Notes under the pieces: model-generated
Seen by the model: only the letters and a program-made list of their open reading frames with translations
What the model was told of the DNA's origin: nothing
The model's database searches: none
IMG/VR virus record: IMGVR_UViG_2609460005_000001
Source of the DNA: a virus
Lineage: Duplodnaviria > Heunggongvirae > Uroviricota > Caudoviricetes
Reading direction: 5' to 3' (one strand)
DNA length: 4,479 nucleotides
Made by a program: the position numbers and the translations under genes
Shown: piece by piece, positions 1-4,425 of the stretch
Layout of the letters: each line of letters begins with the position of its first letter
Numbering within the stretch: the first letter of the stretch is position 1

Positions 1-89
1 TCTGATGGAAATGGAAGCCACGCAAGCACCTTAAAATCACCATCATACACTAAATCAGTAAGTTGGCAGCATTACCTAAACACTGCACT

Positions 90-225: not shown

Positions 226-594
226 ATGTCAAACATCAAAAAATACATCATTGATTACGACTGGAAAGCATCAATAGAAATTGAAATCGACCATGACGTA
301 ATGACAGAGGAAAAACTTCACCAGATTAATAATTTCTGGTCAGACTCTGAATACCGACTCAATAAACACGGCTCTGTATTAAATGCTGTATTAATCATGC
401 TGGCGCAACATGCTCTGCTTATAGCAATTTCAAGCGACTTAAATGCATATGGTGTTGTGTGTGAGTTCGACTGGAATGATGGAAATGGTCAGGAAGGATG
501 GCCTCCAATGGATGGTAGCGAAGGAATAAGAATTACCGATATCGATACATCAGGAATATTTGATTCAGATGATATGACTATCAAAGCCGCCTGA
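226..594 (+). CDS. ea10: Ea10 (lambda early pL-operon protein, 122 aa)
   Basis: 122-aa ORF whose translation (MSNIKKYIIDYDWKASIEIEIDHDV...) I recognise as lambda Ea10; size and position immediately upstream of cIII match lambda gene order. GAGGA at 212-216 sits 9 nt before the ATG. Confidence 0.9.
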   Translation: MSNIKKYIIDYDWKASIEIEIDHDVMTEEKLHQINNFWSDSEYRLNKHGSVLNAVLIMLAQHALLIAISSDLNAYGVVCEFDWNDGNGQEGWPPMDGSEGIRITDIDTSGIFDSDDMTIKAA

Positions 595-666: not shown

Positions 667-831
667 ATGCAATATGCCATTGCAGGGTGGCCTGTTGCTG
701 GCTGCCCTTCCGAATCTTTACTTGAACGAATCACCCGTAAATTACGTGACGGATGGAAACGCCTTATCGACATACTTAATCAGCCAGGAGTCCCAAAAAA
801 TGGATCAAACACTTATGGCTATCCAGACTAA
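667..831 (+). CDS. cIII: CIII (54 aa; inhibitor of FtsH-mediated CII degradation)
   Basis: Not in the ORF track because it is under the length cutoff. ATG at 667 is preceded by a strong SD TAAGGAG (654-660). Translation [54 protein letters not shown] matches lambda CIII as I recall it. Stop TAA at 829-831. Confidence 0.9.
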   Translation: MQYAIAGWPVAGCPSESLLERITRKLRDGWKRLIDILNQPGVPKNGSNTYGYPD

Positions 832-943
832 ATTCACTATCGCCACTTTTATTGGCGATGAAAAGATGTTTCGTGAGGCCGTCGACGCTTATAAAAAATG
901 GATATTAATACTGAAACTGAGATCAAGCAAAAGCATTCACTAA
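800..943 (+). CDS. kil: Kil (47 aa; host cell-division/FtsZ inhibitor)
   Basis: ATG at 800 in frame with track ORF 674..943; translation [47 protein letters not shown] matches lambda Kil as recalled. Its start overlaps the 3' end of cIII in a different frame. The upstream 674-799 extension of the track ORF is most likely non-coding in this frame. Confidence 0.85.
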
Positions 944-1314
944 CCCCCTTTCCTGTTTTCCTAATCAGCCCGGCATTTCGCGGGCGATATTTTCACAGCT
1001 ATTTCAGGAGTTCAGCCATGAACGCTTATTACATTCAGGATCGTCTTGAGGCTCAGAGCTGGACGCGTCACTACCAGCAGATCGCCCGTGAAGAGAAAGA
1101 GGCAGAACTGGCAGACGACATGGAAAAAGGCCTGCCCCAGCACCTGTTTGAATCGCTATGCATCGATCATTTGCAACGCCACGGGGTCAGCAAAAAAGCC
1201 ATTACCCGTGCGTTCGATGACGATGTTGAGTTTCAGGAGCGCATGGCAGAACACATCCGGTACATGGTTGAAACCATTGCTCACCACCAGGTTGATATTG
1301 ATTCAGAGGTATAA
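898..1314 (+). CDS. gam: Gam (RecBCD inhibitor); long form 138 aa from 898, short GamS form from the internal ATG at 1018
   Basis: Translation [55 protein letters not shown]... is recognisably lambda Gam. The internal MNAYYIQ start at 1018 has a strong SD (AGGAG about 10 nt upstream), whereas the 898 ATG has none, consistent with the known GamL/GamS forms. Confidence 0.95.
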
Positions 1315-1319
1315 AACGG

Positions 1320-2105
1320 ATGAGTACAGCACTCGCAACGCTGGCTGGGAAGCTGGCTGAACGTGTCGGCATGGATTCTGTCGACCCACAGGAACTGATC
1401 ACCACTCTTCGCCAGACGGCATTTAAAGGTGATGCCAGCGATGCGCAGTTCATCGCATTGTTGATCGTCGCCAACCAGTACGGCCTTAATCCGTGGACGA
1501 AAGAAATTTACGCCTTCCCTGACAAGCAGAACGGCATCGTTCCGGTGGTGGGCGTTGATGGCTGGTCCCGCATCATCAATGAAAACCAGCAGTTTGATGG
1601 CATGGACTTTGAGCAGGACAATGAATCCTGCACATGCCGGATTTACCGCAAAGACCGCAATCATCCGATCTGCGTTACCGAGTGGATGGATGAATGCCGC
1701 CGCGAACCATTCAAAACCCGCGAAGGCAGAGAAATCACGGGGCCGTGGCAGTCGCATCCCAAACGGATGTTACGGCATAAAGCCATGATTCAGTGTGCCC
1801 GTCTCGCCTTCGGATTTGCTGGTATCTATGACAAGGATGAAGCCGAGCGCATTGTCGAAAATACCGCATACACTGCAGAACGTCAGCCGGAACGCGACAT
1901 CACTCCGGTTAACGATGAAACCATGCAGGAGATTAACACTCTGCTGATTGCCCTGGATAAAACATGGGATGACGACTTATTGCCGCTCTGTTCCCAGATA
2001 TTTCGCCGCGACATTCGCGCATCGTCAGAACTGACACAGGCCGAAGCAGTGAAAGCTCTTGGATTCCTGAAACAGAAAGCCACTGAGCAGAAGGTGGCAG
2101 CATGA
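1320..2105 (+). CDS. bet: Bet / Red-beta single-strand annealing recombinase (261 aa)
   Basis: 261-aa translation [44 protein letters not shown]... is lambda Bet essentially end to end. It starts 6 nt after the gam stop and its stop overlaps the exo start (ATGA at 2102-2105). Confidence 0.97.
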
Positions 2106-2782
2106 CACCGGACATTATACTGCAGCGTACCGGGATCGACGTGAGAGCTGTCGAACAGGGGGATGATGCATGGCACAAATTACGGCTCGGCGTCATCACC
2201 GCTTCAGAAGTTCACAACGTGATAGCAAAGCCCCGATCAGGAAAGAAGTGGCCTGACATGAAAATGTCCTACTTCCACACCCTGCTGGCTGAGGTTTGCA
2301 CCGGTGTGGCTCCGGAAGTTAACGCTAAAGCGCTGGCCTGGGGAAAACAGTACGAGAACGACGCCAGAACCCTGTTTGAGTTCACTTCCGGCGTAAATGT
2401 TATTGAATCCCCGATCATCTATCGCGACGAAAGTATGCGCACCGCCTGCTCTCCCGATGGTTTATGCAGTGACGGCAATGGCCTTGAGCTGAAATGCCCG
2501 TTTACCTCCCGGGATTTCATGAAGTTCCGGCTCGGTGGTTTCGAGGCCATAAAGTCGGCTTACATGGCCCAGGTGCAGTACAGCATGTGGGTGACGCGAA
2601 AAGATGCCTGGTACTTTGCCAACTATGACCCGCGTATGAAGCGTGAAGGCCTGCATTATGTCGTGGTTGAGCGGGATGAAAAGTACATGGCGAGTTTTGA
2701 CGAGATGGTGCCGGAGTTCATCGAAAAAATGGACGAGGCACTGGCTGAAATTGGTTTTGCATTTGGGGAGCAATGGCGATGA
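2102..2782 (+). CDS. exo: Exo / Red-alpha 5'-3' dsDNA exonuclease (226 aa)
   Basis: 226-aa translation [65 protein letters not shown]... is lambda exonuclease. ATGA overlap with bet indicates translational coupling. Confidence 0.97.
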
Positions 2783-2940
2783 AGCATCCTCACGATAATA
2801 TCCGGGTAGGCACGATCACTTTCGTCTACTCCGTTACAAAGCGAGGCTGGGTATTTCCCGGCCTTTCTGTTATCCGAAATCCCCTGAAAGCACAGCGGCT
2901 GGCTGAGGAGATAAATAATAAACGGGGGCTGTATGACTGA
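2779..2940 (+). CDS. orf60a-like small protein, 53 aa, apparently truncated relative to lambda orf60a
   Basis: Below the track cutoff. ATG at 2779 overlaps the exo stop (ATGA 2779-2782). Translation [53 protein letters not shown] resembles what I recall of lambda orf60a, which follows exo in the same arrangement. The stop at 2938-2940 lies inside the start of the downstream methyltransferase gene. Confidence 0.55.
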
Positions 2941-3490
2941 TTTCACCGGAAGCAATACTCCTGCCGAACATCGCGACAGCTGGCGCACACCACCAGAGAT
3001 TTTTGCTGCGCTTAATGCAGAGTTCGTTTTTCAACTTGATGCTGCCGCCAGCGAAAAAAACCGACTATGTCGGCTTTTTATCTCACAGGAGCAGAACACA
3101 TTAACCACTTCATGGCCTGAAGCAATGGGATATGCCTCTGGTTATGTCTGGTTGAATCCACCATACAGCAATATTTCCCCTTTTGTGAAAAAGGCAGCCA
3201 CTGAAAACAAATTCAGTAGTGTGGGATGTGTAATGTTATTGCCTGCTGACACATCTGTCGGATGGTTTCATGAAGCGATACAAACCGCCAGTGAGGTCAG
3301 ATTCATCACGGCAGGACGACTGGCATTTATTAACCCACTCACTGAGAAACCCGTCAGTGGAAATAATAAAGGCTCGATGCTCATTATCTGGCACCCATAC
3401 CCCCGTACACACTGCCACTTTACGACCGTTGATCGTGGAGAGTTGATGGCGTTCGGCTCAAGGATTCTTGCCCGTCGGGAGGCTGCATGA
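2933..3490 (+). CDS. Phage Dam-family DNA N6-adenine methyltransferase (185 aa), orphan with no cognate restriction enzyme in the window
   Basis: 185-aa ORF with the catalytic motif-IV tetrapeptide NPPY (in ...YVWLNPPYSNISPF...) and an N-terminal WRTPPEIFAALNAEFVFQLDAAAS segment typical of the small phage Dam family. Assignment is by motif and pattern recognition, not a search. Confidence 0.8.
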   Translation: MTDFTGSNTPAEHRDSWRTPPEIFAALNAEFVFQLDAAASEKNRLCRLFISQEQNTLTTSWPEAMGYASGYVWLNPPYSNISPFVKKAATENKFSSVGCVMLLPADTSVGWFHEAIQTASEVRFITAGRLAFINPLTEKPVSGNNKGSMLIIWHPYPRTHCHFTTVDRGELMAFGSRILARREAA

Positions 3491-3570
3491 CAACCACGGA
3501 ATGCATTTTTCTGGCAGCGGGCTTCATATTCTGTGTGCTTATGCTTGCCGACATGGGACTTGTTCAATGA
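3487..3570 (+). CDS. Candidate 27-aa hydrophobic micro-protein (MTTTECIFLAAGFIFCVLMLADMGLVQ), coupled to both neighbours
   Basis: Not in the track (too short). Its ATG at 3487-3489 overlaps the methyltransferase stop TGA at 3488-3490, and its stop TGA at 3568-3570 overlaps the ATG at 3567-3569 of the next ORF. The core IFLAAGFIFCVLML is long enough for one transmembrane helix. No independent SD was seen; support is purely structural. Confidence 0.3.
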   Translation: MTTTECIFLAAGFIFCVLMLADMGLVQ

Positions 3571-3782
3571 CACCTCAGCAGGAAAACGCCCTTCGCAGCA
3601 TTGCCCGTCAGGCTAATTCTGAAATCAAAAAAGCCAGACAGCAGTTTCCGGATAAAAACGTCGATGACATTTGCCGTAGCGTACTAAAGAAGCACCGCGA
3701 AACGGTAACGCTGATGGGATTCACACCGACTCATTTAAGCCTGGCGATCGGCATGTTAAACGGCGTCTTTAAGGAACGGTGA
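3567..3782 (+). CDS. Hypothetical protein, 71 aa from ATG 3567 (track ORF 3468..3782 begins at a TTG inside the methyltransferase gene)
   Basis: Open frame with mixed charged/helical composition: MTPQQENALRSIARQANSEIKKARQQFPDKNVDDICRSVLKKHRETVTLMGFTPTHLSLAIGMLNGVFKER. The start is ambiguous between ATG 3501 and ATG 3567; 3567 is preferred because of the ATGA coupling with the micro-ORF and because it avoids overlap with the methyltransferase. I do not recognise a family. Confidence 0.5.
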   Translation: MTPQQENALRSIARQANSEIKKARQQFPDKNVDDICRSVLKKHRETVTLMGFTPTHLSLAIGMLNGVFKER

Positions 3783-3803
3783 ACATGAAAAGCAAAATCA
3801 TCA

Positions 3804-3826
3804 GGGAGCTACAGGCTCCTTTTTTA
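3804..3826 (+). terminator. Candidate intrinsic terminator between the 71-aa ORF and the TraR-like gene
   Basis: Stem GGGAGC (3804-3809) / GCTCCT (3815-3820) with a terminal G-U pair, loop TACAG, immediately followed by TTTTTTAT (3821-3828). Short stem but a clean T-tract. Confidence 0.45.
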
Positions 3827-3880
3827 TTGTTCGCATTCATCCTCAAGCGTATTAACCAACAATTCAGGGATTAATGGAAG

Positions 3881-4099
3881 ATGGCAGACATCATTGATTC
3901 AGCATCAGAAATCGAAGAATTACAGCGCAATACAGCAATAAAAATGCGTCGTCTGAACCACCAGGCTATATCTGCCACTCATTGTTGTAAGTGTGGCGAT
4001 CCCATAGATGAACGAAGACGCCTGGCCGTTCAGGGTTGTCGGACTTGTGCAAGTTGCCAGGAGGAGATCGAACTTAAGAACAAACAATGGGGATTGTGA
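3881..4099 (+). CDS. TraR/DksA-family C4 zinc-finger protein (72 aa; phage Orf73-like RNA polymerase-binding regulator)
   Basis: Translation contains C35-x2-C38-x17-C56-x2-C59 (…THCCKCGDPIDERRRLAVQGCRTCASCQEE…), the spacing characteristic of the TraR/DksA C4 zinc finger, and the length matches TraR-like proteins of plasmids and lambdoid phages. The ATG is closely preceded by GGAAG. Confidence 0.8.
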   Translation: MADIIDSASEIEELQRNTAIKMRRLNHQAISATHCCKCGDPIDERRRLAVQGCRTCASCQEEIELKNKQWGL

Positions 4100-4146: not shown

Positions 4147-4425
4147 ATGTTCAGAATCATTTTTCCTAACACCTGGTACGTCGACCACCACGGCACTCCC
4201 TGCAAAATCCTGCGTTCTACCCACAACAAAGTTCACTACATCCGAAAAGGCAGAACATGTATCGCCAGCATGTTCCGCTTTAATCATGACTTTGAACCTG
4301 TGAATAAAGCTGATGCAGATCGGATAGCAGAAGAGATCGAAACGGCAGAACACATTAAGAAGTTACGTGACATGCGTTCAAAAAGCAGAGGTAACCATGG
4401 AATCATACAGCCTCACACTCGATGA
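4147..4425 (+). CDS. Hypothetical protein, 92 aa, immediately upstream of and overlapping the excisionase start
   Basis: ORF with a good SD (GAGGTG 4134-4139, 7-nt spacer). The N-terminal half is rich in His/Cys/aromatic residues (…VDHHGTPCKILRSTHNKVHYIRKGRTCIASMF…) and the C-terminal half is acidic/basic and helical. It occupies the position held by ea-type accessory genes upstream of xis in lambdoid phages. No family recognised. Confidence 0.55.
   Translation: MFRIIFPNTWYVDHHGTPCKILRSTHNKVHYIRKGRTCIASMFRFNHDFEPVNKADADRIAEEIETAEHIKKLRDMRSKSRGNHGIIQPHTR

Follow-up and report, generated by a model that had tools for sequence, protein, structure and literature searches.

A phage Dam-family adenine methyltransferase, probably targeting GATC, in the early-left operon of an apparent lambdoid prophage remnant

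Why do phages of bacteria that possess Dam carry a GATC methylase of their own? The small phage 'Dam' family, to which such enzymes belong, has no agreed biological role in Dam+ hosts, and the question is raised by the IMG/VR record IMGVR_UViG_2609460005_000001, a stretch of 4,479 nucleotides (nt) (hereafter the window, i.e. the whole stretch of DNA that was analysed) that carries a solitary methyltransferase gene at positions 2933-3490. Judged by its relatives, this gene very probably specifies an active stand-alone S-adenosylmethionine (AdoMet)-dependent DNA N6-adenine methyltransferase of that family, most probably with GATC as its target. The protein is an already known and annotated member of a well-known family, not a new one.

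The gene and its family

The open reading frame (ORF) on the plus strand is intact and consists of 185 codons, from an ATG at 2933 to a TGA at 3488-3490. The gene and its two recognisable motifs are:

2933..3490, plus strand: coding sequence (CDS) of a phage Dam-family (PF05869/TIGR01712) N6-adenine DNA methyltransferase (ORF, Pfam, NCBIfam, RefSeq annotation, AlphaFold model)
3035..3052, plus strand: motif I-like LDAAAS, residues 35-40, putative AdoMet-binding loop at the end of the first strand (alignment and model)
3155..3166, plus strand: motif IV NPPY, residues 75-78, catalytic loop after strand 71-74 (read from the sequence, alignments and model)

An earlier note on this DNA had proposed a Dam-family N6-adenine methyltransferase with an NPPY motif at 2933-3490, to be checked by a profile search and by alignment of the catalytic motif; the ORF, the motif and the profile matches all bear this out. 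The matches to the phage N6-adenine methyltransferase family are full-length and far above the cut-offs, both for Pfam PF05869 'Dam' (E = 2.3e-56, 190.5 bits against a cut-off of 28.1, profile positions 1-168 of 169) and for the NCBIfam equivalog TIGR01712 'phage_N6A_met' (165.6 bits against a trusted cut-off of 97.05, profile positions 3-165 of 165). The ORF also matched PHROG 111 'DNA methyltransferase' (E = 1.5e-77), its best PADLOC model was 'orphan methyltransferase' (oMTase), and its product is present in RefSeq as WP_000129285.1, 'phage N-6-adenine-methyltransferase'. No match to PF02086 (MethyltransfD12, the alpha class of EcoDam, T4 Dam and DpnM) was found in the protein at E <= 0.01.

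The NPPY residues, encoded by AAT CCA CCA TAC at nt 3155-3166, are in register with the catalytic motif of characterised members. We aligned six proteins, all PF05869 (the window protein, T1 Dam, VT2-Sakai Dam, HP1 Dam, and Staphylococcus and lactococcal phage proteins of 141 and 140 amino acids (aa), respectively), and N75, P76, P77 and Y78 were column-aligned and invariant throughout, together with 15 other residues; NPPY was also invariant among 29 enterobacterial homologues. L35 and D36 of LDAAAS are invariant in the six members as well and fall within model strand 33-37; a role of this loop in AdoMet binding is inferred from the general architecture of class I methyltransferases.

An AlphaFold model built with 29 homologues (mean pLDDT 80.8, pTM 0.79) consists of one alpha/beta domain, in which LDAAAS follows the first strand and NPPY follows strand 71-74. 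The predicted fold is that of a class I (Rossmann-like) methyltransferase without a separate target-recognition domain. The PF05869 family has no solved experimental structure, and sequence searches of the PDB, with the single sequence and with a 29-sequence profile, gave no match to Dam structures and only a chance hit to CutA. Compared with Klebsiella homologues (70-74% identity) the gene showed a proportion of non-synonymous differences (pN) of 0.19 against a saturated synonymous proportion (pS) of about 0.8, and dN/dS between two of the Klebsiella homologues was 0.075; these values point to strong purifying selection.

The orphan status that the earlier note had assigned to the gene likewise stood up. 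No restriction endonuclease was matched among the window ORFs with Pfam, NCBIfam, PHROG or PADLOC, and none is annotated in two E. coli contexts (22-44 kb) or in PhiR30_1, the only phage record that carries this allele (1 of 50,697; protein 100% identical); the best PADLOC model agrees with this.

Predicted target sequence

GATC is the described target of M.EcoVT2Dam (PMC6602927), of M.EcoT1Dam and its 35%-identical relative M.Btr190III, which methylates many related sequences too (PMC4996451), of M.Phi93DAM, where it protects phage DNA from DpnII (PMC4190342), and of PamA, where host gene expression and virulence are altered (PMC12435837). A profile check placed close relatives of M.Phi93DAM and PamA in PF05869. 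The Dam protein of Haemophilus phage HP1 is reportedly GATC-specific as well. The window protein is 48.6% identical to the VT2 enzyme, 43.5% to that of T1 and 36.9% to that of HP1, which share only 31-36% with one another. Because it is closer to these three than they are among themselves, it is bracketed by GATC-specific members and is highly likely to target 5'-GATC-3'. No PF05869 member in the literature that we found has a different specificity, although off-target activity is clear in M.Btr190III. The statement in the earlier note that the target cannot be deduced thus holds in so far as the sequence gives no proof, but not in so far as GATC can be predicted from the characterised relatives.

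The window itself contains 18 GATC sites, against 23.9 expected. In the PhiR30_1 genome there are 126 against 215 expected (ratio 0.59), despite a GATC-type methylase of its own; this ratio is the lowest among the sixteen 4-bp palindromes with a trinucleotide-based expectation. The ratio in T1 is 0.78.

Truncation by IS1 and alternative readings

The window begins inside an insertion element:

1..76, no strand assigned: IS1 terminus, which interrupts the early-left operon ahead of the ea10-like gene (NZ_CM129849 annotation, genome matches)

A query with the whole window matched 80,003 places owing to this IS1 piece; other genomes match only from position 77, and of the complete genomes only that of E. 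coli strain SW07164 (NZ_CM129849) matches the full 4,479 bases, at 100%. There the IS1 transposase CDS ends 55 nt into the stretch, and the 768-bp element runs as far as window position 76. Upstream in NZ_CM129849 lie IS1, ISKpn26, integrase fragments and an unrelated non-lambdoid baseplate gene, and around the locus we found no pL, N, repressor (cI) or lambdoid replication, lysis or structural genes. The window looks like a truncated lambdoid prophage remnant.

The position of the gene between exo and xis/int was confirmed, and what lies upstream of position 77 is IS1, not pL. An intact-type relative with an identical segment in E. coli (NZ_LR882057) carries genes for a LexA-family repressor, N, ral, ea10, cIII, kil, gam, bet, exo, orf60a and the methyltransferase, and the exo-xis region is reported to be transcribed from pL (PMC3824215). 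Early transcription from pL, as supposed in the earlier note, is therefore a fair description of intact relatives, but not demonstrably of this copy, in which IS1 cuts the operon at 76/77. As the matching genome moreover lacks pL, N and cI, expression of the window copy is uncertain.

Several points weigh against an active, GATC-specific and useful enzyme at this locus. There is no pL in the window, where IS1 abuts position 77, and a terminator-like hairpin lies at 178-199, downstream of the IS1 junction. We found no methylation data for the window protein or for homologues more than 50% identical to it, so that GATC comes from bracketing, and at least one family member, M.Btr190III, has marked off-target activity. 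The depletion of GATC in the carrier phage is uninformative on the specificity of the enzyme. Finally, E. coli hosts are Dam+, a second GATC methylase seems redundant in them, and any benefit (anti-restriction, evasion of mismatch repair or another) is hypothetical.

There is about an even chance that the gene is carried along silently, and at present without effect, in a decayed prophage from which IS1 removed pL, N and the repressor, the methyltransferase being unmade or made by read-through only. The IS1 end at 1-76, the missing lambdoid genes in NZ_CM129849 and the hairpin at 178-199 all agree with this. On the other hand, read-through or hybrid promoters at the IS1 end could still drive the gene. 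The ORF is also undamaged, and it agrees at 100% identity with copies from prophages that look complete and with one in a phage record naming an E. coli C host. This suggests that the truncation is recent and that the sequence still specifies a working enzyme.

It is unlikely that the enzyme belongs to the same family but has a target that is not strictly GATC, i.e. another short motif or a relaxed, nearly non-specific adenine methylation. The nearest characterised relative is only 49% identical, and M.Btr190III offers a precedent for methylation of GATC plus many related sequences (PMC4996451). Moreover, in a single domain of 185 aa without a recognition domain a few loop changes could alter specificity. 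Yet all six characterised members, which are 31-49% identical and come from phages of Gram-negative and Gram-positive bacteria, target GATC (HP1 Dam reportedly so), and the non-specific enzymes Hia5 and Hin1523 are EcoDam-like and fall outside the PF05869 family (PMC3299994).

Other candidates were considered and rejected. A non-specific methylase of the Hia5/M.EcoGII type does not fit, since such enzymes are EcoDam-like (Drozdz et al., PMC3299994) and the window protein is PF05869; in that work the Hia5/Hin1523/Nma1821 group was placed with EcoDam, DpnM and T4 Dam by HHsearch, with residue 194 as the motif IV aspartate. The group is EcoDam-related, has DPPY and is about 290 aa long, and the window protein falls outside it, as judged by family assignment. 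M.EcoMIV, the 'Dam homologue' of a prophage in E. coli EC958, carries PF02086 and is not the same gene. Of the C227-11 enzymes, M.EcoGVI is YhdJ-like (ATGCAT) and M.EcoGIX is plasmid-borne and non-specific, and neither is relevant.

Gene neighbourhood

On its plus strand the window carries genes from the distal portion of a lambdoid early-left (pL) operon, corresponding to the segment of lambda from ea10 to xis. Besides the methyltransferase these are:

226-594, plus strand: ea10-like DUF2528 gene
667-831, plus strand: cIII
800-943, plus strand: kil
1018-1314, plus strand: gam (Pfam Gam, PGAP)
1320-2105, plus strand: bet (Pfam RecT, PGAP)
2102-2782, plus strand: exo, lambda exonuclease (Pfam YqaJ, PGAP), which with gam and bet forms the upstream Red module
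2779-2940, plus strand: orf60a/DUF1317, 53 codons (Pfam PF07026, E = 2.8e-33, PGAP)
3487..3570, plus strand: unannotated hydrophobic ORF of 27 codons (MTTTECIFLAAGFIFCVLMLADMGLVQ), with ATGA overlaps at both ends
3567-3782, plus strand: orf61-like gene, 71 aa (PHROG 303, PGAP, alignment with lambda and VT2-Sakai)
3881-4099, plus strand: TraR/DksA-type zinc-finger gene
4147-4425, plus strand: DUF4222 gene
about 4397 onward, plus strand: excisionase-like gene, start only

The methyltransferase had been described as lying directly after the Red module. It does lie downstream of gam-bet-exo in the same operon, but orf60a (2779-2940) stands between it and exo. The ATG of orf60a overlaps the stop codon of exo (ATGA, 2779-2782), its 3' end overlaps the start of the methyltransferase by 8 nt (2933-2940), and further ATGA overlaps join the methyltransferase stop to the start of the 27-codon ORF (3487-3490) and the stop of the latter to the start of orf61 (3567-3570). 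Because start and stop codons of neighbours overlap in this way, exo, orf60a, the methyltransferase gene, the 27-codon ORF and orf61 read as one translationally coupled string. No promoter-like sites were found on the plus strand between exo and the methyltransferase, hits in the promoter scan being no more numerous than in shuffled sequence, and a terminator-like hairpin follows orf61 at 3803-3821.

Three small features of this segment deserve mention. The 27-codon ORF at 3487-3570 is conserved among phages including lambda, VT2-Sakai and phage 21, and seven of nine substitutions among seven lambdoid phages are synonymous in its frame. The longer orf61 frame that overlaps it appears as a 93-aa 'ZapA' in some RefSeq records but is interrupted by a stop in both phage 21 and ev207. 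The product of the 27-codon ORF had no Pfam match, and this ORF is probably a real gene for a small membrane protein. Secondly, the window and VT2-Sakai have a run of six A at 3627-3632 where lambda has seven; the difference shifts the frame, and the annotated orf61 of lambda differs in frame and C-terminus from the 71-aa window protein. Thirdly, a 29-codon ORF (MKSKIIRELQAPFLLFAFILKRINQQFRD) at 3785-3874 on the plus strand spans the hairpin at 3803-3821 and a T-run and is a 'putative secreted protein' in phage 21; this segment may act as a terminator, serve as a small gene, or do both.

Replacement of lambda orf63

The flanks of the methyltransferase gene are about 98% identical to lambda and VT2-Sakai, and this similarity extends up to the start codon (...CTGT|ATG, 2933), is lost within the ORF and begins again at the stop (...ATGA, 3487-3490). 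The slot holds the 558-bp methyltransferase ORF in the window and the 192-bp orf63 (DUF1382) in lambda and VT2-Sakai. As the junctions fall exactly at ATG and ATGA, the comparison indicates a gene-for-gene replacement of lambda orf63, i.e. a module exchange at gene boundaries within the exo-xis region. The two genes share position, start and stop junctions and operon, whereas the product of lambda orf63 is an unrelated protein of 63 aa that is not an enzyme; a pro-lytic effect of orf63 has been reported (PMC10869804). The literature that we found on the exo-xis region makes no mention of a methyltransferase in the orf63 slot.

Distribution

The gene was found in 312 of 5,426 complete E. coli genomes (about 6%), at 99% identity or more in 241; the copies are always chromosomal and are named 'phage N-6-adenine-methyltransferase' in the records listed. 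In 71 genomes the identity is 95-99%, and 68 of the 312 match less than 80% of the gene, which suggests truncated or recombinant alleles among E. coli genomes. Homologues with 65-84% identity occur widely in Klebsiella, Enterobacter, Citrobacter and related genera, and the whole family matched 2,063 phage records. In Klebsiella-type prophages (including those of Enterobacter) the orthologue keeps its place between a recombinase module (RecT/YqaJ, RecT/Gp157 or Erf) and a TraR-like gene, xis and int.

One Klebsiella prophage (JAWQXH010000001.1, L007:3690-5603) has an ORF of 637 codons with an N-terminal C5-cytosine methyltransferase domain (PF00145, E = 5e-36) and a C-terminal PF05869 domain (E = 2e-57). 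The gene caller gave only the last 200 aa of this ORF, and several database homologues carry both Pfam domains. Judged by its domains, the fusion looks like a bifunctional phage methylase for 5-methylcytosine and N6-methyladenine.

With six members of the family described as GATC methylases, a protein present in RefSeq and a gene found in some 6% of complete E. coli genomes, the locus matters little beyond its correct annotation. Its modest value is that the target can be predicted and that it illustrates neatly how one ORF of the lambda exo-xis region can be exchanged for another.

Mechanism and role

By what holds for the family, the loop following strand 1 (LDAAAS) of the single Rossmann-type domain would bind AdoMet, and the target adenine would be flipped into the NPPY pocket after strand 4 and methylated at N6, most probably at 5'-GATC-3'. 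In intact phages, where the gene string lies downstream of the repressor gene, N and ral, the enzyme would be expressed from pL once the phage infects or is induced, and would be silent in the lysogen. It may serve to complete the GATC methylation of the fast-replicating phage DNA, which would leave the progeny marked throughout and protected from enzymes cutting unmethylated GATC.

By analogy with its relatives, we infer that self-methylation as an anti-restriction function is the most likely use. The presence of ral in the same operon of intact relatives and the in-frame fusion of the Klebsiella orthologue to a C5-cytosine methylase fit this use, and the under-methylation of lambda and P22 virion DNA by host Dam (PMC8022706) offers a rationale in Dam+ hosts. 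The earlier note had suggested anti-restriction or, possibly, epigenetic control of the host, and each has an experimental precedent within the family, in M.Phi93DAM (PMC4190342) and in PamA (PMC12435837), respectively.

A main role in aiding recombination appears quite unlikely. Rapid GATC methylation would deprive MutH of hemimethylated sites and so switch off mismatch repair on Red (Bet/Exo) intermediates, in line with the observation that transient overexpression of Dam raises the efficiency of Red oligo-recombination by disabling mismatch repair (PMC4770203). The methyltransferase is co-operonic and translationally linked with gam-bet-exo, in prophages of Klebsiella and Enterobacter its orthologues follow recombinase modules of three unrelated kinds (RecT/YqaJ, RecT/Gp157 and Erf), and the VT2-Sakai paralogue directly follows NinB/Orf. 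However, this position is also the accessory slot of the early-left operon, home to many unrelated small genes, the T1 and HP1 homologues are not adjacent to recombination genes, and ral in the same operon and the fusion in Klebsiella favour anti-restriction. Such a role would blind mismatch repair while phages recombine, to the benefit of exchange between lambdoid genomes that have diverged.

That the enzyme is instead an epigenetic regulator of host genes in the lysogen is very improbable: the PF05869 homologue PamA does alter host transcription and virulence in S. aureus through GATC methylation (PMC12435837), but E. coli, unlike S. aureus, already methylates GATC with its own Dam, so that an extra enzyme would add little, and in intact relatives the gene lies in the repressed pL operon. 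A substrate of RNA or other non-DNA nature is extremely improbable, for although the best structural neighbour of the model is PCIF1, an mRNA cap m6A methyltransferase, and METTL16, KsgA and TrmM were matched too, these matches are fold-level (12-17% identity), EcoDam, M.TaqI, T4 Dam and DpnM score nearly equal to the top neighbours (over 105-110 residues and at fold level only), and the sequence-level relatives are proven DNA methyltransferases.

Comparison with characterised relatives

Among the enzymes compared, E. coli Dam, T4 Dam and DpnM (PF02086, alpha class) have a distinct target-recognition domain and DPPY where the window protein has NPPY, and they gave no sequence-level match; the likeness is a family-level analogy and not membership. 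PamA of S. aureus prophage mPhi11 and M.Phi93DAM of a lactococcal 936-type phage do belong to PF05869, with NPPY as the sole obvious motif, and homologues of the same length as these two align to the window protein at 31-35% identity. At about 140 aa they are without the C-terminal 40 residues (a strand and a long helix) of the window protein, and, as their hosts lack a Dam enzyme, their effect is not redundant.

HP1 Dam (orf13, NP_043482; 173 aa) is of the same family at 37-39% identity and is encoded by the last gene of an early operon, but HP1 is a P2-like phage of another host genus and the neighbouring genes differ. M.EcoT1Dam (T1 gp20, YP_003925) is 44-45% identical, with NPPY aligned and a GATC-specific activity (PMC4996451), and its length equals that of the best PADLOC 'orphan MTase' model (237 positions). 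It differs by an N-terminal extension of 45 residues and an insertion of 14 residues after residue 126, and it comes from a virulent phage in which the gene is not near recombination genes.

The closest characterised relative is M.EcoVT2Dam (VT2-Sakai orf32, NP_050531; also in 933W-type phages), which shows 47-49% full-length identity, has NPPY aligned and is 175 aa long against 185 aa; its gene, too, is an orphan in an E. coli phage of the lambdoid type. Its gene lies in the nin region on the pR side, between NinB/Orf and NinE, whereas the window gene lies in the exo-xis region on the pL side. Since only about half of the residues are common to both, the window gene is a separate lineage (a paralogue) and not as an allele of M.EcoVT2Dam. 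In VT2-Sakai (L004:3793-5141) the M.EcoVT2Dam gene overlaps the end of the gene for the recombination mediator NinB/Orf and has a Lar-like restriction-alleviation gene just upstream. The company of these methylases includes both recombination and anti-restriction genes, NinB/Orf and the Lar-like gene in VT2-Sakai and ral in the intact relatives of the window.

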